From NCBI GenBank assembly GCA_951406725.2, contig OX597818.1:15376001-15440000 (forward strand): DNA of 64,000 nt. Reading direction: 5' to 3'. Under the pieces are notes generated by a model. It saw only the letters and a list, made by a program, of their open reading frames with translations, was not told the origin of the DNA and ran no database searches. This DNA comes from Octopus vulgaris (lineage: Eukaryota). Positions 10,713 through 44,864 of the stretch are shown here, in pieces (the stretch's first letter is position 1; each line of letters opens with the position of its first letter). A program made the position numbers and the translations under genes.

Positions 10713-10820
10713 CTAATAATGTACTGACCATTGGAATTACGTGTGCTGTGATAGTTCTCATTCTTGTTACACTTATCATATGCTGCTTTTGGTACTTTTC
10801 TATCAGGAAGATCCCATCAG
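10713..10820 (+). CDS. IgSF receptor: transmembrane exon
   Basis: tactttcag acceptor; CAG|gtaaag donor; 108 nt, phase 1-1. Encodes ANNVLTIGITCAVIVLILVTLIICCFWYFSIRKIPS: hydrophobic helix, Cys-Cys, then basic stop-transfer residues. Confidence 0.9.
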
Positions 10821-13387
10821 GTAAAGTATTGCCAATTTTTCTCTATCATGCTGATTTAGACTTGGATTTACATTAAGGAGACATTTGCCTGTGGAATCTC
10901 CTGGATATGACATTAAACTGCATCCAGTGGTGAGGCAGCTGTTCAGAAGTTCTTAAGTTGTGGGGAGTCACCTTCAAATAACCATTAACTTCAGGTTGAT
11001 CTTGACACAGAACAGTAATATCTGTCAGTGTCTCATCTATGAGTTGAATAGATTTTTGTAAGTGTAGATTGAGTGCCTTAACTGAGGTGAAAGCAATGAA
11101 TCAAGGAGAAGAAAATCTCCAAAATTGGTACCTTCTTCCAACATGCCAGTATGGAAGAGTATGGCTGATGATACTTACATGAGGTATGTCGAATAACATA
11201 GATTCATACTACTGTAGGTGTGACGTAAATTGAAACAGATTCTTATTTCTTTATTGCCCACAAGGGGCTAAACATAGAGGGGACAAACAAGAACAGACAA
11301 AGGGATTAAGTCGATTACATTGACCCCAGTGTATAACTGGTACTTAATTTATCTACCCCGAAAGGATGAAAGGAAGAGTCAACCTCAGCGGAATTTGAAC
11401 TCGGAATGTAACAGCAAACGAAATACCGCTAAGCATTTCACCCGGTGCGCTAATGTTTCTGCCAGCTCGCCATCTTATGAATTGAAACAGATTCTGTCAT
11501 TGTTCTATTTATGGTCCTCCGGAAGCCAGGGGATTCAACATCACTGACCTCCCACTCTAGAATGTTCCAAGTACAGTGGATTTATGTCCCTTTTAGTAAT
11601 TGCACTATAGCACTGACTGTTCTGGAAGGGTTTTGTTCACTAGGAGGAGCCAGCAGTCTTTCAGCCTATATATGAGACAGAGAGATTTGTTCTTTCTTTG
11701 TTATTCCTAATCCAGCCTGTTCACATCCATGTTATGGAGAGCAACAATACTTGTCTACATGTGGCTTAAGCTAAGAAGATGGCCTCTACCGGCAACTGTG
11801 TGCCTCAAGCCCTTATGTTACACCACATGCATTCAGATTTCTCTTGTGCCACTAGCGAATCATTTGTAGTGTGAATTGCCTTTGTACACTTTCTATTGCA
11901 TTTCTTTCATGCAGAACACAACTGGGCAAAATATTGTGTGTAACTTTTCACATTTCTGTGCTGGTTCACTCGAAGCATATTCTTGGTGAACTCATATCGG
12001 TTCTTATCTATGATTAAATTATTTGTGAAGTTTAAGAATGCCTCCTTCATTATTCCTAACCTTGCACCTGCATTAACATTTAATACAGAGAAAACTACTA
12101 CTAGAGTGATGACCAAACAACACTAAACTGTGGAGCCAAGAATCTCATGTTAGTGCACATTCTGCCACAGGTGGACATAACATGAAACAATGATGTCTGG
12201 GGGATACCTTGCTCCTTACATTTTGATTGAATGATTTAGACATTCAGTTAATCAAGCTTGATAGCAAAAAACAATAAAGACTTCACTTGGTTTTACTATT
12301 TTGTTAATCTAATTAAGTAATGAGCAATCATGTTAATTGTTCTGTGTTCATTATCATTATTTTTATGCCTGCAAAGGTGGCAAGCTGGCAGAATCATTAG
12401 AATGATGGACAAAATGTTTAACAACATTTTAAGTTCAAATTTTGTCATGGTCAACCTTGCCTTTCCTCCTTTTGGGGTCAATGAAATAAGTACAGATGTA
12501 ATTGACGATCACCACCCCACTAAAATTTCAGGTCTTGTGCCAATATTAGAAAAAATTACTTTTTTATGCCTGTTTTTTTTTTTCAAAATTAAATATACAT
12601 TCCATGAGGCAGATATGCCTTTTGTGACCAGATATCACACAGACATAGGTGTGTGTGTGTGTTTGTGCATGTATGCACATGCATGTGTGTGAAGATGTCT
12701 TTTGGTTTTGCTTCACAATTGCAAGGTTGTGGGTTCAATTCTTGGATCAGGTGAAGCATTGTGTCCTTGAGAAAGACACTACTCCAGTTTACTTTGCTGA
12801 AAATGAGAAGCCCTCTCTTCGTCCAGGGGTTACATTTTCCATGTTCCATTGGATACTGAGTGGGAAATCCAAAAAAGAGGCCTATACCTGCTCACAACCA
12901 CATAGATCACTTATTTTTTTCTAGACATAGTCCACCACAAATGATTAACCAATGTGCTCTTCCATTCAGGGGGAAACTTAGCTTCTCTTTCTAGATGGTC
13001 AAGTGACAATGTAGAGCTTTCCATGTAGGCTCTGAGACTTGATTGTTGTTATTGCTGTTGATGTTGATTAGCCACAAGATGGCCTTGATTGAGCAAACCT
13101 ATGATCATAAGCATTCCAGTTGTGACCATCTCATCATTCATTTTTTTTTTTTTTGAGCTACAGTGTACCTCAGACTACATTGTCTAATGCAGCCTTCCAT
13201 TGTTTTGAGGCAGTAGTAAGTGATATGAGGGAGATTTAGATACTCTAGGTGTGAATGAAACGAAAGCAATTAAAATCACTTAATTACTTTTATGCAGCTT
13301 AAATACTTCCACATAATTTTTTTCAAAATTCATTTGTTATATTACCATCTTATTCTTATTTTGTATTTTTGTTTTGTTTTTTTACAG

Positions 13388-13412
13388 TTACTGAAAAAAG
13401 GGAATATTCAAG
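13388..13412 (+). CDS. IgSF receptor cytoplasmic microexon A1 (25 nt, VTEKREYS)
   Basis: Long T tract plus ttacag; AAG|gtaaat donor; phase 1->2, in frame with the TM exon. Confidence 0.8.
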
Positions 13413-13532
13413 GTAAATTGTTTTCTTTTTTAACAATTCATTTTTCTTTTCTTCATTTTCTAACATCTATCATAATAATTCTAACACTTAATGTATAACA
13501 CTATGTGACAAAATTTTTATTTTATTTTTATT

Positions 13533-13958
13533 TTTTTGTCTTTGGTCAGTAAGTGTTATTTCCTATTTGCTTCTATCTAGAAATCAAAGGAAATGACTAC
13601 TGTTCCCTTCAAACTTTGATGTTGTGACCTTTGAAACTGACCTATTTTCCGTTACATGTCAGACAGATTCAGTGCTGAGTTGCTGAAGCAGAAATATCAT
13701 TATAGCAAATATTCTGCTCAATACCACAGATTTGCTTGTCGTTCATTTGACCTTAATCCCTTGAGCATGTCCCTCAGGGGCTGACAATATGTGCATTTCT
13801 GATCATGTTGGAGAGCATCATAGCCATGTGTTGAGAGGGATTCTTTGGGGTTTGAATAAACATGACAAAAGCAAAGTTTGAAGAAAATATTAGCCATTTT
13901 TCATACTTTCTAGGGGTAAGCAAATAGGAAATAACAGTTGCTATCCAAGGACAAAAAT
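13533..13958. mobile_element. MITE-like element with ~95-bp terminal inverted repeats
   Basis: 13533-13626 (tttttgtc...gttatttcctatttgctt...cttcaaactttg) is the reverse complement of 13864-13958. Confidence 0.7.
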
Positions 13959-15654
13959 TGCATTACCCTCCAATTAACTCTACCTAACTATTCAATATAA
14001 AGAGCTAATAATGTTGGATGTAGAAGAGATTGTACAGTGCTGAATTAAAATATAAGCTAAAAAATAAAAGAAACTGAAAAAATAGAAAATAGAAAAAGAT
14101 GGTAGCTTAGTCTAGTAATCACCTGTTATTCCAGTGCTCCATCATGAAAATCTATTGTCACCCCATAATGTGGTACTTTTAAGCCTACATTTGCTGCCCT
14201 CTACCTACCCAGGCCTTTGTTTCACTTCACTTAGCATCCTTGCTCCACCTCCTCTCTACCAAATCATCTCTGCTTTTACATTTCCTTTTGCCTAAGAGCT
14301 CTCCATCTATCATGTCCTTACCACCTGTTGCTGATCACATCATCTTCATCACTGCCCACTTGCCCTTCAGTAGTATATAAGAAGCTGCATTTGGCTACCA
14401 TCATCCTCTATCCAATACACTTTAACTTCACTATGCTGTGTTGCCAGCCAGCACTCCTATTCCTCTCTGAACAACCTCTGTTGCTACCCTTCACCTACTC
14501 TTGCCTTTATCTCAGCACCAACTTCTACTTTTGTCAACTGCTGTTATTGCCAGCTAGTAAAACCAGTGAGACTTCTTCATATCATATCTGACTGTTTTAA
14601 GAAAATCCCAGTACATATTGGAGAATGATACAGAAAGAGAGAATGGTTATGGTGGGAATGAGAGTCAGGACAAATTCTGTGAGGCATTCTATCAGATGCT
14701 CTAACAACATAGACAGCTTGCTACCTTAATATAAGAGTTGAAGGTCAGTTAGTAGATAGAAAGAAAAGCACTGTACATTTTTCTTACTAATCAGCTTTCT
14801 TTTTCCCTGAGGATATGAGCCTGATCAGGCTGGAATCAGTTACTAACTTTTCTTATAACCGATGCTGAAATTGTTCCATCAATATCCCAGATCTTTAAAG
14901 CGGCAAGCTGGCAGAATCATTAGCATGCTGGTCGAAATGCTTAGCAGTATTTTGTCTGTCTTTGCATTTGAGTTCAAATTCCACTGAGGTCGATTTTGCC
15001 TTTCATCCTTTTGGGGTCGATAAATTAAGTACCAGTTGCATACTCTAATTAAGTACCAGTTGCAACTCTAATCAAGTGTCCCCCTCCCTAAAAATTTCGG
15101 GCCTTGTGCCTAGAGTAGAAAAGAACATTTCAAATCTTTCTCACTCCTGCTTGTTTATTGCTTTCTTTGTTATACCTTGTTTTTTATTAATTTCTTTTTA
15201 CTTTAAGGATTTTCCTTTCATCTTATAGTTCAACAAAAACATCTTCTCTTGAAAATTATTGGAATAACAAAGTCTTGAGGTTGTCAATTTTAACATTTTA
15301 TGCTTTGCATGGCTATTTTGCTGGAATGAAAAGCATTGAGTTTGTCAACTTTAACATTTTATGCTTTTGCATGGGTAACATTATTGAAATATCATTCTGT
15401 ATGCGTTTATATATTTGTAGCATTCAAAATATTTTGTTTTATGTTATGAGGGTGTGTGAATGTGCCAGTTTTCAGGTGGGTTAATATAAAGCCTCTGATG
15501 GTGAGGGGTGACCATAACATATATATATATATATATTAATGTTATCATCGTTGTTTTAACATCTACTTTTCCATGCTCACATGGGCAAAGTTTGTTGAGA
15601 CAAATTTTCTAAGACTGGATATCCTTCCAGTCCCAAACTCTAATTTGTATTATA

Positions 15655-15957
15655 CTAGCAGAAATACCCAGCATTGCCTGGGTTAAAGAATGTAATGAAA
15701 TTTAAAATTGCCATGTAGATTACACAGGTCTCAACTGCTAGTAGCTGAGATACCAACTTTCTACTTAACTCTGCAACCCATGCCAGCATGGAACATAGAC
15801 ATTAAGTGAAATGTGGAAAGGAAGTTTTCAACTCATATATGTATATAAAGTAAATACACGTTTGTCTAACTTATTTCGTAACCAAAAAACAGGTACAGAT
15901 TATAAGCAATGAAATGCCCTGCATAGAGTACAAACACACACATACACACACACATAT

Positions 15958-15988
<31 letters not shown>

Positions 15989-17290
15989 CAAACAGACAAT
16001 GAATATATCACATTACTGTTGCATTTTTATACACACATTCACGCATATCAGTTGAAAAGTGAAAGTGTAATAGTAATACTTTAACACTCAATGGTTTTAT
16101 ACTTCTACACTCACTGAGTGGTTGGCGTTAGGAAGGGTATCCAGCTGTAGAAACACTGCCAAATCAGACTGGAGCCTGGCACAGCCTCCTGGCTTCCCAG
16201 ACCCCTGTCGAACCGTCCAACCCATGCTAGCATGGAAAACGGACGTTAAACGATGAGGATGAGGATGATTATGTACATGACATGGACCTACTATTCATGT
16301 AAGTGCTTCTTCATATACTGTGTTTTCTCTCTTGCCATGTTTATCACTGAGAATGTAGAGGTTCTTTTCATCTCCAACTCTAGAACATCCAACATACAGC
16401 TGACCATGTGTGAAGCAAGGTTGAAGGAGGTTAAGCCCCACCACCTTTAGCGATTGAGCTTGTGCTTTGTTGATAGACATTGCAAAGCTGAGTTTGACAG
16501 GAAACTGCAGTCTCTTGAACTGAAAGGGGAGGTCATTTGAGATAAGAGGTATCCTTGGAATGAAGACATTCTCACCCATCATGTTGCCATGATGGAGAAG
16601 AGGTTTCTCAGCTGCAAAGGAGACTTGCACATTTGTGCCTCTGTCAGAGTGGCATCCCAGTGTGCATCGTCTTCTAGAAAACCTCTGAGATGGCAAGCCT
16701 GGCAATATGTTTGACATACTATGTTATTAACCATATGTAAGGCTGTAAATAATGTGGATTACTTGACATGGTGTAATAGAAGAATTAGATAGTAACACTC
16801 TTAGTAGTTGGGATGAGCAACAGAGACTCTGCCAAGTGTGTCTGGTTTTTTAATTCCCAGATGATGTGTGGGTGCTCCAAGTGCATGTCTTTTCCATTTG
16901 TTTTGGTACTAGGTATAGAAATGTGGAACTTCATTGTATAGCAGTCTTGTAGCAAATTCATCATCTTGACAGAGCTTGAAGAATGCTGTGAGCATGGTAT
17001 TTTTGGAAGCTTCCATTTGTAGTTGGACTGTGTCTGTCAGTGTGCTGTCTCTGAGATGGAGGACAATGTCATGCTTGTCATGTTCTTGCCCAGCCAGAAG
17101 CATAGCTATTTCATTTGCTGTTGGAGCATTAAACCTCCTTCCAGGTTGACAAGATGGATTCTTGCCTGATCTGATAACTACCTTGTAATCTAGGGAGTTA
17201 GATGGAATTTTTTCAAATGCAGTCTTGAAGCTTCTGTTATACAGCATCTTTTGCAAAGACACTACAATGTTCAACCTGATGCCAGAAATG
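15655..17290 (-). mobile_element. Internally deleted Helitron (Rep and PIF1-helicase fragments)
   Basis: ORF 16295-16717 has FKRLQFPVKLSFAMSINKAQ..SL..VG..L..PCFTHGQLYVGCSRV. ORF 16909-17274 has RRFNAPTANEIA and TMLTAFFKLC..LLYNEVP. The 3' end has a hairpin (acccagcattgcctgggt, 15666-15683) followed by CTAG at 15655-15658. Confidence 0.9.
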
Positions 17291-17399
17291 TTCTTTTAAT
17301 TTTAATTGCTAATTATACAACATAATTAGTTAGATAAATGACCAACATGTGTTTCTGCAGCATAGAGAATGTGCAGTTGCATATGCACCATCATTTAGG

Positions 17400-17615
17400 G
17401 TCTTTTCACAAGCATGGTCTGATTTCATCATGTTGAACTATTAATCCCTACACATTTTTCTCTCTCTTTTTTCCTCTCAATTCTTTCTGTCAAAGAGCAT
17501 ATGCTCAAAACATCAAAGACTTTTCCACTCTTCCCAAGTGTTAAACTAATACACTTGCTTGTTGTTCCTTCACCTGTCTAAGTCATTTGTTTTCTGTAAA
17601 TTCGAATAATATATA
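17400..17615 (+). mobile_element. Short Penelope-like-derived repeat with hammerhead-like core (second copy ~58205-58380, - strand)
   Basis: The two copies align over ~180 bp and share cttt-CTGT.(G/A)A-a-GAGC-loop-GCTC-(G/A)AAA..aaag. Confidence 0.55.
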
Positions 17616-18967
17616 TACTCATATATAACAAAATAAATAGTGATGGATTATTAATCCAGGTAGAATACTTCATAAGCTCTCTGTTGGCATACCAGGCTGA
17701 CACTATTAGTTAGATTAGTGATGAACTCCATAACTTGGACCCTACCACAAGGATACCTGGAGTTCTTCACTAATCTAATATTGTGTATGTGTGTGTGTGT
17801 GTGTGTGGTGTGTATGCATGTGTCTGTATTGTTTGTCCCCCATCACCACTTGACAACCAGTATTGGTGTGTTTACGTCCCCATAACTTAGTTCAGCAAAA
17901 GAGACCAATAGAATAAGTACCAGGCTTTAAAAAATAAGTACTGGGGTCGATTCATTTGACTAAAAATTCAAGGTGGTGCCCCAGCATGACCACAGTCTAC
18001 TGACTGAAACAACTAAAAGATATGACAGGCTTCTTTCAGTTTCTGTCAATCAAATCTAGTCAAGGCTTTGGTCAGCCCAGGGCTGCGGGAGAAGACACTT
18101 TCCAAGAGTGTCATGCAGTTAGACAAACCTGAAACCATATGGATGAAGTTGGAAAACAAACTTCTTAATCACACAGCCATGCCTGTATAGACACACACCT
18201 ACCTACATCCATTAATCTAATGTTATTAATCTAAACAAACTTAAACTGAACTTTAGCTGCCCTAACTTCAATGATTCATTATTATTCCAAAGGCCAGAAA
18301 AACCCAAGATTGCTAAAGATGCAGCACAGATTGCTACTGCAATATCCAGAACTGTTGCGTACCTTTGTTTATATAACACAATTATAAATAACATATGGTT
18401 TTCAAGATATTCAAGCATTAGTACAGATTTCCCAAAGCATTACTCTTTTACTCTTTTATTTGTTTCAGTCATTTGACTGTGGCCATGCTGGAGCACCGCC
18501 TTTGGTCGAGCAAATCGAGCCTGGGACTTATTCTTTGTAAGCCTAGTACTTATTCTATTGGTCTCTTTTGCCGAACCACCAAGTGACAGGGACATAAACA
18601 CACCAGCATTGGTTGTCAAGCAATGCTAGGGAGATGAACACACACACACACACACATATATTTATATACATAGATATGACAGGCTTCTTTCAGTTTCCGT
18701 CTACCAAATCCACTCACAAGGCTTTGGTCAGCCCAAGGCTATAGTAGAAGATGCCCAAGATGCCACACAGTGGGACTGAACCTGGAACCATGTGGTTGGT
18801 AAGCAAGCTAGTTACCACACAGCCACTCCTGCGTCTATATTAAATTATATTTTTAGAAATCCAAAATTCTGTGGTATGCCATTTCAGAACCATTGAAATA
18901 GATGGTCTTTAATTCATTCACAGAATGGGCCCTCTTAATGACTTTTAGATCTCACATTAATTCCACT

Positions 18968-19420
18968 TTAACCCTTTAGCATTTAAACCAGCCATATCCA
19001 GCCAAAATATTCTACCTATTTTATGCTTAAACTAGTCAAGAATCTTTCTCCATGTGAACATGGAAAAGTGGGTGTTGAAACAATGATGATAATGGTTAAT
19101 ATATATACATACATAATATATATGAATGTGTGACAGTCTATGTATACATATTAAGAAATTCCTTTATTCTCTATTCTTTTATGTTTCATTCATTCAATGT
19201 GGTGCAATGCCTTGGTAGGTTTTAGTTGATGATATCAAACCCACTAGTTACTTCAAGTTTGGAATTTTATCTCTCAGTCTCTTACACCGACCCTATGAGG
19301 TCATTCTAAAAATAAACAATCACTTCAGTGAAATCTCAAAGCCACAGGATAATATATGATTAATTCAAAACAATGGAAATAAATAAGCATTGCATTTGAT
19401 AGAATAATCTGAATGTTAAA
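18968..19420. mobile_element. piggyBac-like non-autonomous element (TTAA-CCC termini); related copies 20099-20319 and 29545-29771
   Basis: ttaaccctttagcattt...aatgctaaagg(g)ttaa type termini with a shared internal sequence in three copies. Confidence 0.6.
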
Positions 19421-21066
19421 GCATATAAATTTTTTTTTATTTTATTGGAAGTCATTCTTAACAAGGTGGCAAGTTACTAGTAAGAATAAATCAAAACAAG
19501 TTTAAAACAACTACTTAGTATCTTGGAAGTTAGAAAAGAAAGCGGTAAAAATCTATATGTATGAAAATATAAAGAAAATGGGTTGTCTTAAGAATTATAA
19601 AATAATCAGCACAGGACTTAAAGAGTTTTATATCATATTTATCTAGAAAACAAGAAAGAGAATTTCAAAAGACAGATAGTTCAGGAAAGAAACTACTGGA
19701 ATAGGAACACTTCTTAGAGTAGGAGATAATGTTGAAGGGATAAGATTTAGCAGAAAGATGAGTCACTCATGTAATAATCTTAAGAAGAGATGGTACAAGG
19801 AATGAAAGTCTGGTAGGACAATAATCACAGAAGTATTTATAGAATAGAGATAAAGAAGCAATGTAATGGTTATGAGAGTGGGGTTGAAGTTTTACTGCCA
19901 AAACAGAACCTGTATGGTTAGAATATTGGTTTTGAACAAAAGAGAGAAAGATCACCAGCCTAAGTGTACCAACAGCATTCCATACAAAAGTAAATAAGAG
20001 AGTCATAACAATGAACAGTACATTTGAAGAAAACAAAGTGATGAGCTCAATATAACGAATTAACATTCGTAATGGTTGATTTAACATTAGTTCTAATGTA
20101 ACCTTTAGCATTTAAATAGGCCATATCTAATCCAAATATTCTTGTTTTATGCTCAGACAAGCTAGATCTGGCTTCTTACACCTGCCCTACTGTGTCATTG
20201 TAAAAATAAACAATCACATCATCAAAATCTTGATGCTACAAGAAAATGCATAATCAATTTGAAATAATATGAAGAAATAAGCATCACATTTCACAGGAAT
20301 TTGAATGCTAAAGGATTAATCATTCCAGTTAAGATCTTTAGATAAAGTTAAACTTAAAACATAAAGACAAGAAGACTGAAAAACACACAGACAAAAAAAA
20401 AACCGATGTCAGACAGAGAAATAGGAATACCATCATAATTCTTTAATGATTAATGGGGGAAAAAAAGTTTAGTTTTTACTGAGCTGAAAGTAACACAAAT
20501 TAAGTTTCAGAAAACTGATCATTTTCACTCAATCATACAAGTCAAATGTTCCTCAGTCAAGCAAGAAGAGATTGACAAGTTTAAACATGATATCATCCAG
20601 AAGATCATTAATAAAAACTAAAAATAATATTGATTACATGACACATCATGCCTGCTATATTTTTTATTTGTGATTTCATTATGCACCTTATCTGTGGGTA
20701 TAGGTCGTGTGCTGTTTATGATGCAGCAAAGTATGTTATTTTATGCTCTTTTTAGCTGGCTTTTGTGGTTGCTTTTTAAAGCTTTATGTCAATCATAAGC
20801 AAACTGACTTAAGAACGCAAATGATTCAGCAATGACCATCGTATCTTTTTCTTTTGTTTAAGACATAGCATATCAAGGACTATATAATCCAGTGTGACTT
20901 TTATGAAACAACAGGATGTAATATGAGAGAAATTTGGTTGCTAATTGTAGTCTATAGAGAGCAACCAATGCCAAAGCCTCCTTCATTGGCTTGCAGTTAT
21001 TATGTGATTGGGGGCATAGCTGGGCTTGGTTTAAACACTGCTATATCTAATGTATTGCTTATGCAC

Positions 21067-21110
<44 letters not shown>

Positions 21111-21205
21111 ATGTGTGTGTGTGTTGTGTATATACAGGCTGAGGATATCTCTGTCCGTCTCTCTCCTGCTTTTTCTCTCTCTGTATGTGTGTGTGTGTGT
21201 GTATG

Positions 21206-22810: not shown

Positions 22811-22871
<61 letters not shown>

Positions 22872-23950: not shown

Positions 23951-23999
<49 letters not shown>

Positions 24000-27397: not shown

Positions 27398-27447
27398 TGA
27401 CAGTACAAAGTTATCCAGTGTAAAGTACATTAGGGATTTCAACAAAG
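27398..27447 (+). CDS. IgSF receptor cytoplasmic microexon B1 (50 nt, SDSTKLSSVKYIRDFNK)
   Basis: ttctttctag acceptor; AAG|gtaagg donor; phase 2->1, open in the required frame; same length as B3 and B4. Confidence 0.78.
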
Positions 27448-29844: not shown

Positions 29845-31136
29845 TGAGGGGCGTTCAATAAGTAATGCCCCTGACCCACTTCCCATAGCAGTAGAGCAAC
29901 AAAACTTGGCGTAGTTATTAGTCTTTTTCTACATAGGAACCACCCAGAGTTACACATTTCTCCCATTGTTTGATGCAGCTCTGGAGACCATTTTTGTAGA
30001 AGACCCCAGCCTGGTCTACCTACCACGACGTGACTTCAGAAATCAAGGCTGCATCATCTGGGAAACGTTTTCCTTTCAAAAACAACTTCATGGCTGGGAA
30101 GAGGTGAAAATCAGAGGGTGCAAGGTCAGGAGAGTAGGGAGGATGGGGGAGAGTTCATAGCCGCACGCCTGTGCTTCTGATCTGGCGACACGCGAGTTGT
30201 GGACCGGAGCATTGTCCTGCAGGAGGAGGATGCCTTTGCTGATCTTGCCCCGCCTCTTGATTTTGATAGCTTCTCTTAATTTCCTCAAAAGTGAAGCATA
30301 ATAGGCTCCTGTAATTGTGGTACCCTTTGTCAGGAAATCTGTCATCACTACTCCGTCCTGGTCCCAGAAGACTGTGAGCATGACCTTGCCAGTGGAGGCC
30401 TGCACCCTTGCCTTCTTTGGAGGAGGTGAGTCGTGGTGCTTCCACTGCATTGACTGGGCTTTGGTCTCTGGATCATAGTGATGGACCCAGGTTTCATCCT
30501 GTGTAATCAGTCTTTTGAAAAATTTTGACTCATCTTCTTGGCACATCTCCAAATTCATCCTCAAGCACTCGACACGTTCTTGCTTCTGGAAAGGTGTGAG
30601 CAACGTGGGAATCCATCTGGCAGGCACCTTTTGCATATGCAATTGGTCATGAATGATAGTTTCCACAGACCCGGTACTAATCTTGACCTCATGGGCTATT
30701 TGGTGAATAGTTATGCGTCGATCTTCCAAAATGGCAGCCTCAACTTGATGGACAGATGCCTCATCAATAGCAGAAGTGGGGCGACCAGATCTGGGAGCTG
30801 TTTCCACAGAGTTCCGACCATGTTTGAATTCACGATGCCAGCGTTTTACAAGGTTATATGATGGGGCATCATCACCACAAATTACTTTCATTTCATCAAA
30901 AGTCTCCCGTGGTGTGCGTCCTTTCAAATACAAAAACCGGATCATTGCTCGACATTCAACAGGCTCCATTTCACACTTGACTCAGTTCAAACACCTGCAA
31001 ATCAGAGACCACAATTAGTTCCGAGCTGTAATTTGCCACTTAAGTTATAGAGATATTGATAATTGCACATGCAAAATTTCAGCTATATCAAACAATTGCA
31101 AATGGGTCAGGAGCATTACTTTTTGAACGCCCCTCA
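29845..31136 (-). mobile_element. Full-length mariner (DD34D, irritans-like) with ~36-bp TIRs and TA target duplication
   Basis: TIRs tgaggggcgttcaataagtaatgcccctgaccca / tgggtcaggagcattactttttgaacgcccctca, 1292 bp in total. Confidence 0.97.
29918..30969 (-). pseudogene. Mariner transposase with a 1-nt frameshift (~30150) and one premature TAG
   Basis: WIPTLL, TQDETW and QDNAPVH in ORF 30088-30969. After the frameshift the sequence reads HPPYSPDLAPSDFHLF...W*VDQ...QWEKCVTLGGSYVEKD*. Confidence 0.95.
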
Positions 31137-32386: not shown

Positions 32387-32428
<42 letters not shown>

Positions 32429-32731: not shown

Positions 32732-32756
32732 ACGAATTTATCTCGGAAAATGACGA
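32732..32756 (+). CDS. IgSF receptor cytoplasmic microexon A2 (25 nt, DEFISEND)
   Basis: ctaat branch-like site, ttcttttgcag acceptor, GA|gtaaga donor; phase 1->2. Confidence 0.82.
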
Positions 32757-32793
32757 GTAAGATATTAAATATATTTTGTAAATTATATTTGTT

Positions 32794-32872
<79 letters not shown>

Positions 32873-33919: not shown

Positions 33920-33971
<52 letters not shown>

Positions 33972-34918
33972 GGATGGATGGACAGACAGTAAGATAGGTA
34001 GAGAGAGGGAGGAGGGAGGGATGGCACTTCAATTTGACTTCTATTGACCATTTATTTATTTAGCCAAGCACTTTATTTCACGTTGCTCCAGTTCACTCAG
34101 CTGTAGAAATGAGTTGCGATGTCACTGGTGCCAAGCTGTATCGACCTTTGTCTTTCCCTTGGATAACACTGGTGGCATGGAGAGGGGAGGCTAGCTGGCA
34201 GAAGCGTTAGCACACCGGGCGAAATGCTTTGCGGTATTTCGTCTGCCGTTACGTTCTGAGTTCAAATTCCGCTGAGGTTGACTTTGCCTTTCATCCTTTC
34301 GGGGTCGATAAATTAAGCACCAGTTACGCACTGGGGTCGATGTAATCGACTTAATACCTATGTCTGTCCTTGTTTGTCCCCTCTATGTTTAGCCCCTTGT
34401 GGGTAGTAAAGAAATAGGTATGCATGGGCGACTGCTGGTCTTCCATAATCAACCTTGCCAGGACTTGTGTCTAGGAGGGTAACTTTCTAGGTGCAATCCC
34501 ATGGTCATTCATGACCGAAGGGGGTCTTTACCATTTACCATTGTATTGACATAGGCCAAGCATGCTGACCTCTCCAAGATATCAGTTCTAGGATGGAGAA
34601 AATAATGAGAAAAGGATGAGGTGTGGTCATCAATGAAAGCATTTTTGTTTTTTGTCTTTTTCTTAAGGTGCCAGAAGAAAAAGAACAAAGCAAAAATGCT
34701 TTTAGTGATGACCACACCTCATTATTTTGACTGAATAAATAAATAAATAATGACTAAATAAATAAATAAATAAATTGTGAATACATGTAAAATTGAAGTG
34801 GCATCCCTCCCTCCTCCCCTTCTCTATCTATCCATCTGTCTGTCTATCTCTCTCTCTCTCTCTCTATCTATCTATCCATCTATTTATCTATCTATTTGTC
34901 TGTCTGTCTGTCTATCTG

Positions 34919-34985
<67 letters not shown>

Positions 34986-35156
34986 AGCTACCTATCTATA
35001 ATAATAAAGCATATTACTCTACCTCTGGTATTCAATGGTATTCAAGTATTATTTTACTCCACCTTGTTTCACATTTATTTGCTTACTGTGGTATATATAT
35101 AATATGAATTAGAGATAAAACCACTATTATGCAACTCAAACAGCTATACTCCCTAA

Positions 35157-35204
<48 letters not shown>

Positions 35205-35662
35205 CATACATATATATGTATCTACGTATGTGTGAAGATACATGGTTCAGTGGTTAGGGCATTGGATCACAATCATGATGTAGTGAGTTCAATTCCTGGA
35301 CCAGGCTGTGTGTTTTGTTTTTGTGCAAGACACTTTATTTCACATTGCTCCAGTTCACTCAGCTGTAGAAATGAGTTGCGATGTCACTAGCCTCACTAGT
35401 CCCTTTCCCTTGGATAACATCGGTGTCATGGAGAGGGGAGGGTGGTATGCATGGGCAACTGCTGGTCTTCCATAAACAACCTTACGCAGACTTGTGCCTC
35501 AGAAGGGAACTTGCTAGGTCCAATCCCATGGTCATTCATTACCAAAGGAGGTCTTTACTTTTACATGTATGTATGTATATATGTATAGTTTACTATTTCA
35601 TTATTCATAGGATCAACAAAACATGTACTCTATCAAATGAAAGATTAATGTCTTTTAATGTA

Positions 35663-35871
35663 TGCAGAATTTAAATAAGAACTACCAATAGTATCACGCC
35701 ACGGAGACATGATACTTTGGCAGATTTATATAACGTGCCTTGTCTATCCCTCCAAGCAATCACTTAGGCTGAAAGATTGCTTGCAGGCACAAGGCACATT
35801 ATATAAATCTGCTGAATTATCATGTCACTATGGTATGAAGCTATTAATAGCTCTTATTTAAATATTTTGCA
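35663..35871. repeat. Fold-back (MITE-like) element with ~95-bp arms
   Basis: atttaaataaga...gcagatttatataacgtgccttgt...caagcaatc pairs with gattgcttg...acaaggcacattatataaatctgc...tcttatttaaat. Confidence 0.85.
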
Positions 35872-36067
35872 CATGAAATAACATGTGTGTATGAGTGTGC
35901 GTATTTATGTATATTAATGCAGAGAGGGAGAAAGAGAGAAAATATTAATGAAGAGATGATGATGAGAATTATGGTGATAGAGGTTGAAACACATGTGCAT
36001 ACATACACACACACACACACATGTGCACATCCAACACTTACTAAATACTATTTTCTTTCTTTTTCAG

Positions 36068-36105
36068 ACCTATATATGCAGAAATTGGCTACATAGATAT
36101 GGACA
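36068..36105 (+). CDS. IgSF receptor cytoplasmic microexon B2 (38 nt, EPIYAEIGYIDMD)
   Basis: ttttctttctttttcag acceptor; A|gtaagt donor; phase 2->1. The junction codon GA|A encodes Glu. Confidence 0.88.
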
Positions 36106-38679
36106 GTAAGTTTCTGTTCCCTCTTCATTGTAACAAGCAAATCCATTAAATCCAACAAATACATACACCAAACACTTTTGTACCATTCTACTAATAAAAC
36201 ACTAGCCTCTACTCTTCTACACAATAAAGATATAAGCCTTTTTAGGATTGATTTTAACATAATCAAATCAAATCAAAACAAATCAAAATAGATGAACATC
36301 AATGGAATTTCTATCTTTGTAGTACCAGTGCCGGTGGCACACAAGAAAACCATCCGAACGTGGCGGTAGCCAGTACCACATCGACTGGCCTCCGTGCTGT
36401 GGGCACGTAACAAACACCATCCGATCGTGGCCGTTCGCCAGCCTCATCTGGCACCTGTGTCGGTGGCACATAAAAACACCATCCGAAGACCCGGCAAGAC
36501 TAGTCAGGCCATAACCCGTGGCCCCTACCTGGGACGTAGTCAGTCCACCTGTGCATACCTTCCTTCTTATGACACTTGTGAAGACCTGTTGAGGCTAGTG
36601 TGTGACACTTGTGAAGACCTGTTGAGGCAAGTGAAAATCAAACAAAATCAAAATAGATGAACATCAATGGAATTTGTATCTTTGTGGTACCAGTGCCGGT
36701 GGCACACAAGAAAACCATCCGAACGTGGTCGTAGCCAGTACCGCATCGACTGGCCTCCGTGCTGTGGGCACGTAACAAACACTATCCGATCGTGGCCGTT
36801 CGCCAGCCTCATCTGGCACTTGTGTCGGTGGCACATAAAAACACCATCCGAGCGTGGCCGTCTGCCAGCCTCGTCTGGCACCTGTGTCGGTGGCACATAA
36901 AAAACACCATCCGAGCGTGGCTGTTCGCCAGTCTCGTCTGGCACCTGTGTCGGTGGCACATAAAATCACCCACTACACTCTCGGAGTGGTTGGCGTTAGG
37001 AAGGGCATCCAGCTGTAGAAACACTGCCAGATCTGACTGGCCTGGTGCAGCCTTCGGGCTCCCCAGACCCCAGTTGAACCGTCCAACCCATGCTAGCATG
37101 GAAAGCGGACGTTAAATGATGATGATGATGATATTCCTTGAAAGGACTATATTTTATTATGCTCTCCTCTTCTTTCTACAATGCTGCAACTTATCCAACT
37201 CCATGTCATCTCTTGCTTGTCACTCTCCTGTCTACTAAATCTTCATTACTACTCTGTTGCTTTCTCCCACTCCACTTTTACAACAATTTCAGTTACCTCC
37301 TACTTCCCCTGTCTCCTCTAACTCATGCCTTATTGTTCATCCTCAATCTTTATGCCCCATTCTCTACATCCACCCTTCAACCATAGGGAATCTTTACAAT
37401 TGTCACTTACCTCCCTTCTCATTTATTCCCCATTTCTCACTCTTGCAACTTCCATTCACCAACATTCTAATTCCTCTGTTCCTCTCACTTCTCCTCATTT
37501 CCTACACTGACAGTCTACCCTGGCACCTCATTGTTACTATTTTTATCTCTTTCCAGCTCCACCTGATCACTTTCATCCTCTCTTCTAAAATATGGGTAGC
37601 CAACTATATGTCATTTCTCTCTTGTCCCTCTCCTGTCTACTTAGTCCTTATTACTATTCTGCTGTTCTCCCCACTCCACTTTTATTGCATTGTCAGCTAC
37701 CTCCTACTTTCCCTATTGATCACTTCCATCTCCTCTTCTAAAATGTGAGTTGGCATGTTGATCTTCTACAGCAGAAAATCTGTTCTTCTCTCATACATTA
37801 ACCCTTCATTTCCTTGTATAAAGCTGCCCCTTGGAGTTACTAGCCATGCAGGATGTATGGCAACATCAATAGGGCTGGTGGATTGAACAAAGTACTCAGG
37901 ACACACTGTAAAGTGGTTGGCATCCAGCCATATAAACCATGCCAAAGTAGACACTGAAACAATGCAGTCAATGGACACATTTGTTCCTGTCAAACCATCC
38001 AACCCATGTCAGCATGGAATGTGGACGTTAAAGGATGATGATGAAGCCATTTTGCTCAGTACTCTCTGTTCATACACACATGCACCCCCCCCACACACAC
38101 ACACATATGTGTAGACATGGTTATTTGTAACTTAATGAGAAAAATTGTTACCTGATAATCCATTGTAGTTGAGAAAAGTACTTAGAACATTTATTGCAGG
38201 GCCCCAATCAACTACAAGGGTGGAAAGTGCATAGGAACTATAGTATAAACTTGTGTTTATCCTTATTATATATATATATATATGAAATATAAATTAGAGA
38301 TAAAACCACTATTATGCAATTCAATGGTATATTTTATATATCTATATTGTGAAATTTGATTTAATACTAAATTTAATTTTTCCCTGTAAGTTTGGAGTTA
38401 AACTCCCTAATATTATTATTATTATTATTATCATTATTATTATATATATATATATATATCCGTACACAGATACAGACAAACACACTCAGGATTTAGATAT
38501 GAGCAATGTGGCCTACTATAAGTTTCATGCTCAGATACCACATGGTCAATGCAGAGCATCACACCCACTCAAAAGAGCAATTCAGCTGAAACAAACCTAA
38601 TGGCTAACACAATTTGCTTCTTCAACCTGACAACACTCCCAAACCACCATCACCACCACTACCACTACCACCTCATTAA

Positions 38680-38945
38680 TTTGACCAAAAATGCTACTCA
38701 GTTGCTCATTTGAGAAGTACTACCATACCCACCGTATTCTCCTGGTGTAGTGCCTTCGGATTATCACATTTTCATCACTCCCTAACAGCCTGCAATGTGT
38801 TTTATTCAACAATGTAAAGCTGAAAAATGTGGCTAGACGAATTCGAATCAAAATCCAATGTTTTTTTTTACTGTCAAAACATTAACAAGCTGGTGGAACA
38901 TTGACAAGAAGTTGTTAACAATGAAAGAGAATATGTTATTGATTT
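38680..38945 (+). mobile_element. Old mariner transposase 3' fragment
   Basis: Reads EVLPYPPYSPGVVPSDYHIF (a decayed HPPYSPDLAPSDY motif) and later VVNNEREYVID. Confidence 0.75.
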
Positions 38946-39128
38946 ATTTGTTAAAAATATTGATGAAAAATAAGGATTAAAATGAATGGAATAAAAGAAT
39001 GTCTGACTTTGTTTAACAACTCTTCGTGTATATATTTAAATATATGTTGATATATTAATGTATCTATACAGAGAAAAATATGTAATTATATAATGATATT
39101 AATATTTTACAAATCACTTTATTTACAG

Positions 39129-39159
39129 GGGCAAAAGCGCTCAAAGCTACCCAGAATGA
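39129..39159 (+). CDS. IgSF receptor cytoplasmic microexon A3 (31 nt, RAKALKATQN)
   Basis: tttatttacag acceptor; GA|gtaagt donor; phase 1->2; paralogous to A4. Confidence 0.88.
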
Positions 39160-39671
39160 GTAAGTATATACATTTTTTTAAATTTTTACAATTTCTTTGT
39201 CTTTTTTTTTCTACTTTAAGAAATCTACTTTGAAATTTACAAAGAGAAAGAATCTGATGGTTTGGGTGAAATTAATGATAGTTTATGTGGTTAAGGAATT
39301 TGTGTTGCAATCACATCATTCCAGATACAATATCACACTGCATGGCCAAGTCAGCTGAGCATGCCATGTAGAGGGCACTTATCTTAGTCTACAACAGCTC
39401 CTGATGAGAGCATTTAAAGGTAATTTTACATAAAAAACAACATCAGATCCAGGGAGTAGATGAAGCTTATGACCAGAACAAGAATGGTTTTAAAGCCAAA
39501 CACACACACACACACACACACACACTCTCAAAGTTTTCACTTCATATTTGGTATTGTCTCTTATGTTACATGAAATGGCTTCAATTATTATTTTTTACTT
39601 ATATGTCAAATTATATAATTTGTTTTCTTAGTCACCTTCATTGATAAGTATTTGATACGTTTGTTTTCCAG

Positions 39672-39721
39672 GTATTTAAGCCCGAAGTCTGTAAATTCTC
39701 TGAAGCGCATTCAAAATGAAG
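39672..39721 (+). CDS. IgSF receptor cytoplasmic microexon B3 (50 nt, EYLSPKSVNSLKRIQNE)
   Basis: ttgttttccag acceptor; AAG|gtgaga donor; phase 2->1; 40/50 nt identical to B4. Confidence 0.9.
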
Positions 39722-40999
39722 GTGAGATTTTTCTTCATTATTCTCTAAATTTAATAACATTAATTAGTTTAACTGCTTAAATGATAGAATCGTGGTAATC
39801 ATGAAGAATAAGAAGATTATGCAGGAGAGATGATTGTGGAATGGCCAAAATGCCCTCATATTCCACCCATCTGTCTGACAACCACCTACAGACAAATCAT
39901 CCATCTCATAAATATTCCCATCCTGCAAAGCATGCTTACATTTATTTATTTGATCTTGGCTTGGTTTTGCTTCATGCTTTTTTTTGATGGGGCTGGGGTC
40001 ATCCCAGGTTAGTGGCCCCAAAGACATCATTATGTGTAGAGCTGACCAGGTCAACCAGTGCTCTTCATCGGGGGCAGCCCCTCTGCATCCTCCAAGGTGA
40101 TGTCAAGTCTCTAGAGATCTTCCCCAATCATGTCCAGCCATCTGATGCAGGACCTGCCACAAGGCCACTTCTAGCCTGCAGCTACTGTATTGAATGAGAG
40201 TAAAACCCTGGTAGATTTTAAAATCCACTCATTACAATTTGCAAAATAAAAAGTTGATTATAATTTCCATTGGAGTTGAGCTATAATTTTGGGTGTGCAC
40301 TCAGCAAATGAAGATTTCTGTTATTTTATTTTATTTATAAATCTCAACTTTCTATGTCTATTTCAATTTTGATGCCAAACCCATAAATTATTTATGTTTT
40401 GTGTAAATAATTCATACTGAAATTACCCACAATTGCATTGAACTATCTTGATCTGCAACAAACCTCCCCTCCTCTCTCTCTCTCTCTCTGGGCATCTGCA
40501 TGTGGGTATGGTGAATGTGCATGTGTGTGCATATGCACATACAACTGAGAAAAGACACATAATTGCCAACAGAGATGTACATAGCAATTTTGTATCAAAA
40601 TAAGTTATCTTTTACACAGTTTGTTTTTAATTCATTGAATTAATCCCATCAAAGTACTCTGAGTTTCTCACTGGCCATATCCATTTATTTATTTAGATTT
40701 ATTACACAGTCATAAGTCTAAATAATCAACAGAGATGATCAGCTCAAGTCTGGAACAGCATGATTCTACATAAGAAAACTACACACACATACATGTACAC
40801 ATGGTTAACATGCAGTTTACCATTGTAAAATAGTGAAAGTAAATTGTCCTTAAAAAAGGAAATTTTTTGCAATAAAAACAGGAAGTGACAACACAAACAT
40901 CACGTAATTTCATATAAACACTATGTAATGTTGGTGATGGCAGCTGTCCATTGTAGGTCAATATTGACTAGTCTGTTAAGGAATCACCTCTGGCAGGCT

Positions 41000-41990
41000 C
41001 CCGTGTGGACTACAAGACCTGCTCTTGATCTACTGCAGGTTAAGTTACTTGACACAATTGAGAAGTGATACCTTCCATGAGCTATTTCATATTCTCTCTG
41101 TTGTTCTCCTCAATAACTAGAATTATGAACATCAGTAATCAGTGCCATTTAATGTACTGGAGGGCCTTCTCCTCCCAGTTGTCTGGACAAACACTGAAGT
41201 CCTTCAGCACATCCCTGTATTGCAACCATGGCCACCATGGCTTCTCCTGTCCTGATGCAGTTCAGCATAGAAAACTGCTTTTGGGAGCCTGCTGCCTCTA
41301 ACCTGGAAACATGTTCTGCCCAGTGCTGCTGCAGTGAGATTAATAAGGGCCTCCACATTAACTGCACCAGAGCAGTGTAGGACCTCTACATTAGAAATGC
41401 AATCCCACCATCTTATATGTAAGATGGAGTGCCGACAACAAAATTGGACTCATGTCTGGCTCTTGATGTCTCTGCAGTTGAGGACCATGCAATCTATGGC
41501 ATAGAGGAGGTAAGAGAGTACTGGAGCACTGCACAACTTAATCTTTGTGTTGTGGGAAGAATCATAGCAGCTCCATAGATGCTTCTCAAGAGTATCAAAA
41601 GCCTTTGTGGGAGAGTGTATTTGCCAGTCAACTTTGAAGTCAGAAGAATTAGTACAAGTCACTGTGCTGTTGAGAGAGGTAAAGGCTACAGAGTGTACTT
41701 TAGGAGCTCTCCAAGTACTATCACTTTCTCAGGTAATCTCAATCTAATAGGACATCTTGGTGGGGTCTCGTAGAGTAGCTTAGTCTTTGAAGTGTTGATC
41801 TTGAAATCAAACACGTGTGCTGCCCAAGAAAATTGGTCCACAATGCATCGTATGTCCCCAATGCTGCTGGCCACATGCACTAAGTCATATGCAAAAAGCG
41901 GTTCCCTGACATACATTTGTCCTAGGAGCACAAAGAGGACATTCAGAAGCTGCTAGACAAAAAGCAATGCCTGCACCAGCAACGTCTACA
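41000..41990 (-). mobile_element. Degenerate RTE-clade LINE reverse-transcriptase fragment
   Basis: ORF 41686-41931 has REPLFAYD...DQFSWAAHVFDFKINTSKTKLLY (decayed LFADD..GL.IN..KT). Downstream fragments include QHWAEHVSRL. Confidence 0.8.
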
Positions 41991-42460
41991 GAACTCAGAG
42001 AGAAGCAGGGTCACTTTTACTGAAATCAAGTCTGAAGTATAGGAGGAAATGAGTGAGACCAACGAAATTTAATGTCTGTTTTCCATGCTGGCATGGGTTG
42101 CACAGTTTGACTGTGGACTGGAGAGCCAGGCTCCAATCTAATCTGGCAATGTTTCTCCAGCTGGATGCCCTTCCTAATGCCAACCACTCTGAGAGTGTAG
42201 TTGGTACGTTTTACATTCCACCAGCACAGGAGCCAGACAGGGGCACTGGCATCAGCCATGTTCAGATGGTGTTTTTTACATGCCAGCAGCATGGGAACCA
42301 GTCAAGGGGCCCTGGCATCGATCACGTGATTGATAATCAACCTTCTTACCACAAATCCATGCCTGCTAATATATAGGTGGCCATCAATTGTGATGAGTTT
42401 GTTTTTTTCTCTCTCAATTCATTTTTTCTCTTTACATTTAACAAATCTATTTATTTACAG

Positions 42461-42491
42461 GGACAATTGACCGCAAATCTACTGAGAATGT
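42461..42491 (+). CDS. IgSF receptor cytoplasmic microexon A4 (31 nt, GTIDRKSTEN)
   Basis: tttatttacag acceptor; GT|gtaagt donor; phase 1->2; 21/31 nt identical to A3. Confidence 0.88.
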
Positions 42492-42907
42492 GTAAGTATG
42501 CAAAATTAAAATATATCTTCACACACTTTCCTTATATATATTTTTTTCATTTGAATCCATCTACCTGGAAATTTAAAAAGAGAAAAATATCTTTATATTT
42601 GATAGTTTTGGGAAAAATTGATAATGGTTGTTTGTGTGGTCAAAGAATTTGTATAGCATTCACATCATTGCAGATACAATCACATTGCTTGGCTGAATCA
42701 GCTGAGTATGGAATGTGGTGGGCACTTATCTAAATCTGAACTACAACAGTTTCTGATGAGAGTATTTGTAAGAAGCCTTAAGAGAACGACGTCAGACCCT
42801 GGGAGTAGGTTGAAGTTTATCTCCTTGGAAAAAATGAGTTTAAAGCCAAACACACACACACACATGCACAAGCGTGCACATGCACACACGCACACAGACA
42901 CACTCAT

Positions 42908-42952
<45 letters not shown>

Positions 42953-43651
42953 AGATAATGAACCACTGCTCGGCAATGGCCCAATCCCATCTTCATCGAG
43001 TGAGGAAACTATGGAAGTGGTGGTTTTTCACACACACACACAAATAATACACATGTAAACAAACAAAAGCATGCACATGCATATGCATGCACAAACATAC
43101 ACACATGTACACACACGTACAAACAAGCACATGCACACACATACACACATTCACACACACACATACATGTATACACAGACAGATAATGCATATGAAGAGT
43201 TAAAAACAAAGATAAAAAAATATTTATAGCTTTTAACTAAGATATATATAAAGCACGATTTATTCGTGAGCAGAGGCGTGATCTTTAATTGGTGATTCTA
43301 CCATATAATACCATTGATCATTTCTGTTGTAGCAACATATTTAGATACAGCGAATATCAATCAAATTAATATAGCTGAATATACATGTTAAAACAATGTT
43401 ATCAAGGCAATCCAAGATTAGTTAAATTCCATTAGTTTAATTCCTTTTTCTTGTTATATAAATATATATATGTATGTATGCATGTATATACATATGTAGA
43501 AATATGTCTGTGTGTGTGTGTGTGTGTGTGTGTTTGTGTATGTGTGTGAGAGGGATTATATATGTATGTATGTGGATAGGTAGGTAGGTATAATTCATCT
43601 TTTTACAGTTAATTTCATTGTTGTTAAGTGTGTGATTCATTTATCTTCCAG

Positions 43652-43701
43652 ATATTTAAACCCATTGTCAGTAAATTCCCTGAAGCACGCTCAAAATGAA
43701 G
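43652..43701 (+). CDS. IgSF receptor cytoplasmic microexon B4 (50 nt, VYLNPLSVNSLKHAQNE)
   Basis: ttatcttccag acceptor; AAG|gtgaga donor; phase 2->1. Confidence 0.9.
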
Positions 43702-44850
43702 GTGAGATTTTTCATTATTTTCTAAATTTAATGGCAAGGCAGCAAGCTGGCAGAATTGTTAGCATGCCAGGCAAAATGCTTAGCAGCACTTCATCTATCT
43801 TCGTGTTCTGAGTTCAAATTCCACTGAGATTAACTTTGCCTTTCATCCTTTTGGGGTCAATAAATTAAGTACCATTGGGGTTGATGTAATCAACTAGTTC
43901 CTTCCCCACAAATTTCAGGCTTTGTGTTTTTATTAGAATCATGGTAATCATGTAGAAATAAGAAGATTATGCAGGAGAGATGATAGTGGAATCTTTATCT
44001 TTAATCTTTTCTTTTACTTGTTTCAATCATTTGAATGTGGCCATGCTGGAGTACTACCTTGAAGGGTTTTGGGCAAACTCATTGACTCCAAGACTTATTT
44101 TTTAAAGCCTAGTACTTATTGGTCTCTTTTGCTAAACCATCAAGTTATGGGGGGATGTAAACACACTAACACCAGTTGTCAAGTAGTGATGGAGGGGACA
44201 AACACAGACACAGAGAGACAGACACAGATTTACATAGATATATATATAAAGAGTAAAGACCCCTTTCTGTCATGAATGACCATAGGATTGCAACTAGGTT
44301 ATCCTCCAAGGCACAAGTCCAGGCAAGGTCATATGTGAAAGACCAGCAGTCACCCATGCATACCAGTCTCCCCTCTTTATGCCACCGATGTTATCCAAGG
44401 AAAAGGCAAAGTCCTTTTATCCAAGTGAAAAGCAGCCATTTTGAATAAGTAGAGCTTGGCTCCAGTCTCATTACAGGCATTAATATAAGAACATAATAAG
44501 GTTGAACAGATACCACAAGACAACTTAAGGTCCTGAATTTTAACCCATTGCACACACTTTCTTCTGTGTCTACTGACTATTAAATTCTGTAATATAATCA
44601 TTTCAGCTATGAAGAATTAGATACCAGATTTTTTGTGAATGTTTTTTGGTATAGAAGAGCACTCTGTGAGAGATGTATCAATTCCTTACTAACATAATTT
44701 CATAGAACTGTAGCTAAATATTGGTATTTTTAGAACATTTATAAAGCATTTCATGAAACTGAGTTATGTCATTCGAAATTAGATTTCATTAAGTTATTTG
44801 AGACAAACAGCTCTGAAATTAATAATAATGTTTATTTTTTCCTATTGCAG

Positions 44851-44864
44851 CACTAATTGGATGA
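44851..44864 (+). CDS. IgSF receptor terminal coding segment (ALIG-stop), followed by putative 3' UTR
   Basis: Strong acceptor tttattttttcctattgcag. Phase 1 gives GCA CTA ATT GGA TGA, followed by ~800 nt of non-repetitive sequence. Confidence 0.7.

Follow-up and report, generated by a model that had tools for sequence, protein, structure and literature searches.

An apparently single-copy octopus immunoglobulin receptor with conserved tail tyrosine motifs and a probably limited range of splice variants

Gene structure at the locus

We examined a 64 kb stretch of Octopus vulgaris contig OX597818.1 (the window), which carries on its plus strand part of a gene for an immunoglobulin (Ig) receptor. 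The cytoplasmic tail is encoded at 10713-44864, where a transmembrane (TM) exon is followed by a series of very small exons (Table 1). The original prediction had described eight such microexons with canonical AG/GT ends, joining into one open frame, and all eight were found in place. Every one of the exons concerned has an AG acceptor, all except the last have a GT donor, and intron lengths between the TM exon and the last exon range from 512 to 13,985 nucleotides (nt). The tyrosines of exons B2, B3 and B4 had been expected one to three codons after the junction, and were found 3, 1 and 1 codons past the junction codon, respectively. Strict alternation of A exons (phase 1-2) and B exons (phase 2-1) holds for the eight exons first described, but a ninth, exon C, had been overlooked; because its phase is 2-2, the alternation of the tail is not strict.

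When a filter based only on splice consensus was applied to the 34 kb, just 8 candidate small exons were returned, and 5 of the real exons passed by their own scores. Donors of the A and B exons agree with the consensus at 4-6 of 7 positions, and that of exon C, with 2 of 7, is the weakest of the gene. Beyond the stop codon, candidate hexamers resembling poly(A) signals lie at 45358, 47075, 47212 and 47344.

Table 1. Exons of the receptor gene in the window and location of the related receptor cluster
Feature	Position	Strand	Remarks
D3, membrane-proximal Ig domain exon	6545..6865	+	321 nt, phase 1-1; one match in the G000 genome
TM exon	10713..10820	+	108 nt, phase 1-1; helix is residues 324-358 of P0005 in the structure model
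Tail exon A1	13388..13412	+	25 nt, phase 1-2
Tail exon C	15208..15279	+	72 nt, phase 2-2; alternative acceptor at 15229 gives 51 nt
Tail exon B1	27398..27447	+	50 nt, phase 2-1
Tail exon A2	32732..32756	+	25 nt, phase 1-2; acidic
Tail exon B2	36068..36105	+	38 nt, phase 2-1; bears YxEI and YxxM
Tail exon A3	39129..39159	+	31 nt, phase 1-2; duplicate of A4
Tail exon B3	39672..39721	+	50 nt, phase 2-1; YLSP motif; duplicate of B4
Tail exon A4	42461..42491	+	31 nt, phase 1-2; absent with B4 from RefSeq X5
Tail exon B4	43652..43701	+	50 nt, phase 2-1; YLNP motif (YxN and YxxP); absent with A4 from RefSeq X5
Last exon, coding part and stop codon	44851..44864	+	joined frame open
LOC115212116-type cluster	G000:C5:27400000-29310000 (loci L017-L055, L060-L073); also C28, C31		

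Identity and ectodomain of the receptor

With the D3 exon as query, O. sinensis LOC115211591 was found at 99% and, at 90%, a protein of O. bimaculoides, and the clusters of these matches contain seven O. sinensis isoforms and XP_052823758.1. The same gene is represented by XP_029636015.1 and its isoforms (O. sinensis LOC115211591), XP_052823758.1 (O. bimaculoides), CAI9722396.1 (O. vulgaris) and GAB1602869.1 (Argonauta hians). A 139-residue translation from the TM exon was identical to the O. vulgaris model P0011 (0 mismatches), and four O. sinensis RefSeq isoforms matched window translations with 2 mismatches each over 136-163 residues. Gene finders had been expected to miss these exons; they did not, because P0011 and the four O. 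sinensis isoforms contain the same translations, and all eight microexons are already in the models of three Octopus species (O. vulgaris, O. sinensis and O. bimaculoides). Given this identity with database models of other species, the eight microexons are more than chance. No paper was found for four accessions of the gene in a search that left out most subscription journals, and the available passages of one paper on octopus microexons do not mention it.

The remaining ectodomain exons lie upstream of the window. The hydrophobic N-terminus is on a separate signal-peptide exon at about -17.6 kb, followed by copies of the D1 exon at about -13.1, -11.7 and -10.3 kb and by D2 at about -3.5 kb. 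The three D1 copies are in tandem, approximately 1.4 kb apart, and their repeat units including flanks are 96-98% alike (G000:C5:15362943-15366035; L003, L002). The middle copy is frameshifted and is either a pseudo-exon or an assembly error. Database models use one or two copies in O. sinensis and have one such domain in O. bimaculoides and Argonauta. In the G000 genome we found no close paralogue of D3 and, for D1, only the three local copies plus two weak matches with stops (both counts are lower bounds).

Only Ig families (Ig_3, I-set, V-set) scored above the Pfam cut-off, with no catalytic domain, and 3-4 Ig-like domains were counted. In an AlphaFold model from a five-row alignment there are three domains rich in beta structure as well as a TM helix, and residues 359-490 have a predicted local distance difference test score (pLDDT) below 50. 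All Foldseek matches were Ig tandems at 12-18% identity, and the fold and PDB searches returned generic tandems (titin, Dscam, DIP, IgLON) with no family indicated. The gene product is an Ig-superfamily type I receptor with a signal peptide, Ig domains and one TM helix. In a search of 1.84 billion representatives there were 68 matches at E<=0.001 and 3 at 1e-30; close relatives were confined to octopods, accompanied by three unnamed proteins at about 25-26% identity, in agreement with the lineage-specific receptor proposed at the outset. The receptor is an apparently single-copy, previously unstudied octopus Ig receptor, the exons themselves being already annotated.

Two further observations concern the ectodomain. 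Four cysteines of D1 (C42, C65, C85 and C110, in P0005 residues 40-110) are invariant in six homologues, and the domain has no Pfam Ig match; in an Atlas search, D1 resembled unnamed clusters of molluscs and others of V/I-set-like type, at 0.91-0.94, which is a lead only. D3 is absent from the O. vulgaris models P0011 and P0078 and from the unnamed P0035, while relatives have it. This may reflect ectodomain exon skipping shared by distant homologues, or faulty models.

Conserved tyrosine motifs and proposed signalling

To compare motifs, we aligned six homologues (O. sinensis, O. bimaculoides, Argonauta and the unnamed P0013, P0035 and P0087). Eight of 66 ungapped tail columns were invariant, and six of these eight form the motifs YxEI (Y423, E425, I426 in P0005 numbering) and YLxP (Y444, L445, P447); the other two are the junction residues S395 and D412. 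The form YEEI occurs in 4 of the 6 rows. YxxM, a motif of phosphoinositide 3-kinase (PI3K) sites, is present at Y428 in the rows of the three octopods alone, and Y471 is confined to the two Octopus rows. In comparison with O. bimaculoides, 64 of 67 residues of B2-B4 are identical, as against 79 of 107 in D1. The analysis brings out an unstudied octopus receptor whose two tyrosine motifs are conserved across widely divergent sequences.

In the three Octopus species B2 reads EPIYA, the E coming from the A2/B2 junction codon, and this stretch falls in the region of pLDDT below 50. EPIYA was rejected as a conserved feature: Argonauta has DPVYE and the distant homologues EIYE or DIYE. The conserved core is YxEI. 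We also searched the tail for immunoreceptor tyrosine-based inhibitory and activation motifs (ITIM, ITAM) and for hemITAM, as defined in the accessible parts of PMC12582321 and bioRxiv 2022.03.04.482883. No canonical ITIM ([I/L/V/S]xYxx[I/V/L]) was found in the tail: YAEI is excluded by its P at -2 and YIDM, despite an I at -2, by its M at +3, and the remaining tyrosines fail at -2 or +3. Neither an ITAM (Yxx[I/L]x(6-9)Yxx[L/I]) nor a hemITAM ([E/D]3xYxxL) was present there, YIDM following YAEI by only one residue and no acidic triplet ending at -2.

Several of these motifs have described SH2 partners. According to the available text of PMC3507883, the v-Src SH2 domain binds pYEEI and YXNQ sites recruit Grb2; excerpts of PMC2175135 give YXXP as the Crk/CRKL consensus and pair YVNV with Grb2. 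EPIYA is a binding site for Csk in Pragmin, and in CagA for Csk or SHP2 (PMC3593179, in part).

We consider it probable that the gene encodes an Ig receptor with a mostly constitutive phosphotyrosine tail and limited splice tuning. Ligand binding, or cell contact and adhesion, would cluster the catalytically empty receptor. Judging by their conservation, YxEI and YLxP would be phosphorylated in the unfolded tail by Src-type kinases and would then dock SH2 proteins. YxEI would bind Src-family or Csk/SHP2-type SH2 domains and YxxM the p85 subunit of PI3K, while Crk-type adaptors and Grb2 would dock at YLxP and YLNP, respectively. Because skipping any one of the asymmetric A and B exons breaks the frame, these exons would mostly be included together, as their phases and site strengths suggest. 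Going by the gene models, variation would come mainly from exon C and possibly from a skip of A4B4, in addition to the choice of D1 exon. Exon C would determine how far the motifs lie from the membrane, and the A4B4 skip would remove one YxxP and the only YxN common to the three Octopus species. As to the kinase contexts that the A exons had been proposed to supply, END, TQN and TEN are alike, and swapping them would probably change little.

Tandem duplication of an exon pair

Exons A3 and A4 are identical at 21 of 31 nt and B3 and B4 at 40 of 50. The similarity extends into the introns flanking the two pairs, with 72% identity across 440 aligned columns, 82% across 115 and 93% across 59. In 36 comparisons of exons with 60-nt flanks, only A3-A4 (z 8.5) and B3-B4 (z 19.1) stood out. 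The next-best scores, A1-B1 (5.1) and A2-B2 (4.2), are not like-with-like, and a serial duplication of all four A/B pairs was rejected. The originally proposed growth by exon-pair duplication is thus upheld for A3B3/A4B4, which are tandem duplicates, but no homology links A1B1 or A2B2 with the later pairs. A third copy of B3 was not found in the G000 genome, where only the B4 region matched.

Cassette number differs between species, with one YLxP pair in the Argonauta model (47% identity) and two in O. bimaculoides. Because the Argonauta model ends after one pair, the A3B3/A4B4 duplication likely postdates the split from Argonauta, although that gene model could be incomplete. Comparing A3B3 with A4B4, 11 codons are identical, 4 synonymous and 11 non-synonymous, too few to judge selection. 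The duplication added a second YLxP, and skipping of A4B4, as in RefSeq isoform X5, restores the pre-duplication junction. On this dating, the locus appears to record the gain of a signalling motif through exon-pair duplication, later than the Argonauta split.

Alternative splicing of the tail

Exon C was traced from 24 extra residues in RefSeq isoform X1 and sits between A1 and B1. The O. sinensis models show four tails: exon C is long in X1, short in X2 and skipped in X4, and in X5 B3 is joined to the last exon without A4 and B4. Exon C varies most among the RefSeq tails. With regard to the A and B exons, 10 full-tail models (7 O. sinensis, 1 O. bimaculoides, 2 O. vulgaris) follow only two of the 34 in-frame paths described below, namely the full path and the path minus A4B4.

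The effect of skipping single exons was the same for all eight microexons in that the normal frame was left; seven skips truncate the protein, while skipping B4 enters another frame of the last exon. This second frame is open for 87 codons and contains a hydrophobic stretch (window 44852-45115), and no model uses it.

A tail that is effectively constitutive, its small exons owing to intron history plus one duplication and the minor RefSeq tails being noise or artefacts, seems to us rather unlikely. Phase alternation does penalise skipping, the full-length O. bimaculoides model has one tail form, and the 11-nt 3' end common to B3 and B4 could let short anchors fake the join of B3 to the last exon. 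Exon C, however, is absent from the O. vulgaris models and included in full in O. bimaculoides and five O. sinensis models, so that both states are modelled. Its segment aligns in O. bimaculoides and Argonauta, and 12 of 24 residues are kept in Argonauta despite the weak donor. In addition, the exon-plus-flank comparisons revealed no duplicate of exon C that could cause mis-mapping.

We regard as still less probable a combinatorial phosphotyrosine code, in which many of the 34 (or 76) possible tails would be made, regulated by tissue and able to rewire SH2 recruitment. The arithmetic behind it was confirmed: of the 256 subsets of eight microexons, 34 reach the normal stop, exactly the phase-alternating ones, and all 34 are free of stops at the junctions. 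Inclusion of exon C raises the arithmetic total to 76 of 768. X5 is one of the 34, phase 0 occurs in none of the 10 introns that follow the TM exon (P about 0.006-0.012, taking 7-8 independent introns and average phase frequencies), and the accessible portion of PMC6851185 provides in shrimp Dscam a precedent for combinatorial tails. Against this, when intron phases were drawn at random 20,000 times, eight exons yielded a median of 26-28 compatible tails, and 34 or more arose with P 0.30 under uniform and 0.40 under average phase frequencies (47/30/23). With nine exons including C, the probability of at least 55 was 0.27-0.37. The phases of the receptor tail do not allow more in-frame tails than chance, and alternation is not a way to maximise tails because random phases give similar counts. 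Moreover, each event requires the coordinated skipping of at least two exons that have consensus-like splice sites. The same tail is found in three members of the P0013 cluster, and P0035 and P0087 differ in ectodomain content but have the same tail layout. Counts of frame-compatible subsets are no evidence of a splicing code. Rewiring of the tail by splicing, as first envisaged, is matched in one respect, one of the predicted pair-skips being the X5 model, but the models realise only two of the 34 paths and 34 is not above random.

Several points weigh against the mostly constitutive phosphotyrosine tail with limited tuning that we prefer. The list of isoforms comes from automatic gene models, X5 may be a mis-mapping caused by the 11 nt shared by B3 and B4, and further members of the set of 34 or 76 tails may be made. 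Confidence in the structure model is low (mean pLDDT 59.9, predicted template modelling score 0.44). The motif alignment consists of only six rows, of which two are closely similar and three are unnamed distant homologues at 26% identity, and the proposed SH2 partners are inferred from mammalian proteins.

The Kirrel annotation

The protein is entered in two databases under the labels "kin of IRRE 1" and "kin of IRRE-like protein 1", and its membrane-proximal region weakly matches Kirrel-type proteins. Kirrel/Neph proteins have five Ig domains including a C2-set_2 domain, and a C-terminal PDZ-binding end of THV or TNV type. In a tree of the membrane-proximal domain (25 rows), the octopus gene fell with 16 mostly molluscan rows and bird Kirrel1 among the other 9, with support of 95/92; this is a tree of one domain with 124 columns and long branches, in which only one row on the Kirrel side is named Kirrel at source. 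The octopus protein has 3-4 Ig-like domains, C2-set_2 (PF08205) does not appear in the list of 11 Pfam families for either protein, and the C-terminus is LIG or PIG as opposed to THV or TNV in five Kirrel-side rows. A Kirrel/Neph adhesion protein that works chiefly by homophilic or nephrin-type binding and by way of a PDZ scaffold is thus highly improbable, its identity being largely refuted by the tree split, the domain count and the C-terminal end, and a misleading label is corrected.

A related receptor cluster

The window gene has distant relatives approximately 12 Mb away. The model P0034, which is O. sinensis LOC115212116, is a multi-Ig receptor with a repetitive tyrosine-rich tail, and matched the window gene over the membrane-proximal region (blastp E 1.7e-7). 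Its membrane-proximal exon matched at least 11 loci in the G000 genome, 7 on C5 (27.4-29.3 Mb), 2 on C28 and 2 on C31.

In five of the 11 tails scanned by similarity to the P0034 tail, a procedure in which divergent exons are missed, we found 59 small exons (7, 11, 20, 6 and 15 per gene) and none on the opposite strand. Nearly all of them are 42, 54, 60 or 63 nt long; 57 of the 59 are phase 1-1 and 55 contain a tyrosine. The motifs are of YxN, YLxM and YAEI types, and among 68 tyrosines 25 are in YxN and 22 in YxxM. The exons form tandem units of 60+42 or 63+42 nt, whose number differs between paralogues. One cluster gene has a 19+17 nt pair of phases 1-2/2-1 right after the TM exon, like A1/B1.

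Both this family and the window gene appear to have tails grown by duplication of small tyrosine exons. The family differs in being multicopy, in having more Ig domains and symmetric exons, and in carrying YxN/YLxM instead of YLxP. Because they are phase 1-1, the cluster exons are singly skippable; by sequence, it is the LOC115212116 family and not the window gene that has the exon phases a combinatorial tail would need. It is conceivable, though we hold it doubtful, that octopuses have a clan of unstudied Ig receptors whose tails evolve by duplication of single-tyrosine exons and are tuned by skipping. The window gene would then be a modest, single-copy case and the cluster the combinatorial system, a cytoplasmic counterpart to the ectodomain diversification of Dscam and protocadherins. 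If skipping is regulated in the window gene, or above all in the cluster, this cephalopod receptor clan would set signalling strength and partner choice by the number of tail exons.

With regard to the cluster itself, the ectodomain part of P0034 matched exons at both 27.44-27.46 and 27.79-27.81 Mb (G000:C5:27438871-28203483), and its tail exons matched both 27.81-27.87 Mb and 28.18-28.20 Mb. P0034 may combine pieces of several paralogues; alternatively, the cluster may not be alike in the two species. An intronless partial copy of a cluster gene was seen at L056:5762-6962 (G000:C15, ~67.916 Mb), covering P0034 residues 370-797 in three shifted pieces at 60-70% identity. From its sequence this copy is likely a processed pseudogene, and no match to the tail was seen in it.

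Repeats in the introns

Putative mobile-element remnants are also present. Intronic open reading frames at window 30088-30981 (-) and 2793-3152 (-) resemble remnants of mariner/Tc1-type transposases, and two others at 16295-17295 (-) resemble Helitron helicase fragments. A GC-richer dispersed element with internal tandem units of 63-66 bp and 193 bp occurs at window 7463-7677, 36767-36965 and 50107-50498, recurring in the introns and downstream of the gene.

Comparison with known systems

The theme of exon duplication combined with tail tyrosine motifs and intron phase was not met in any paper found, again in a search lacking most subscription journals. Individual elements of it have counterparts elsewhere. 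PECAM-1/CD31 is likewise an Ig receptor with a multi-exon tail; as described in the available part of PMC5664058, that tail has many exons and is alternatively spliced, and loss of one exon removes SHP-2 binding. PECAM-1 differs in having six Ig domains and two ITIMs, whereas the octopus tail has no canonical ITIM and asymmetric exon phases, and no homology is claimed between the two.

A second parallel is Dscam of the shrimp Penaeus monodon, also an invertebrate Ig receptor, for which excerpts of PMC6851185 report at least 384 tails inferred from transcripts, skipping having been read from 20 transcript contigs, and skippable tail exons with SH2/ITAM-type motifs. The octopus gene, in contrast, has another ectodomain, without FN3 or hypervariable exon arrays, and its four tail forms come from models only.

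Further parallels are the Botryllus FcoR3 and FcoR4 genes, which alter motifs by splicing (PMC12582321, as far as accessible), and the Hydractinia Alr genes, which have alternative tails with ITAM/ITIM motifs (bioRxiv 2022.03.04.482883, likewise). In those accessible parts, both are invertebrate Ig receptors that are lineage-specific and carry tyrosine motifs together with about three Ig-like domains, features found in the octopus receptor as well. FcoR and Alr, however, belong to multigene allorecognition families with ITIM, ITAM or hemITAM, whereas the octopus gene has neither a close paralogue in the G000 genome nor such motifs, and nothing links it to allorecognition.

With Pragmin and CagA the Octopus tail shares an exact EPIYA; binding of Csk after phosphorylation is a property of Pragmin in the available text of PMC3593179. 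The octopus EPIYA is not conserved beyond Octopus, and there is no homology. The octopus receptor at most works like PECAM-1, shrimp Dscam, FcoR and Alr, and belongs to none of these families.

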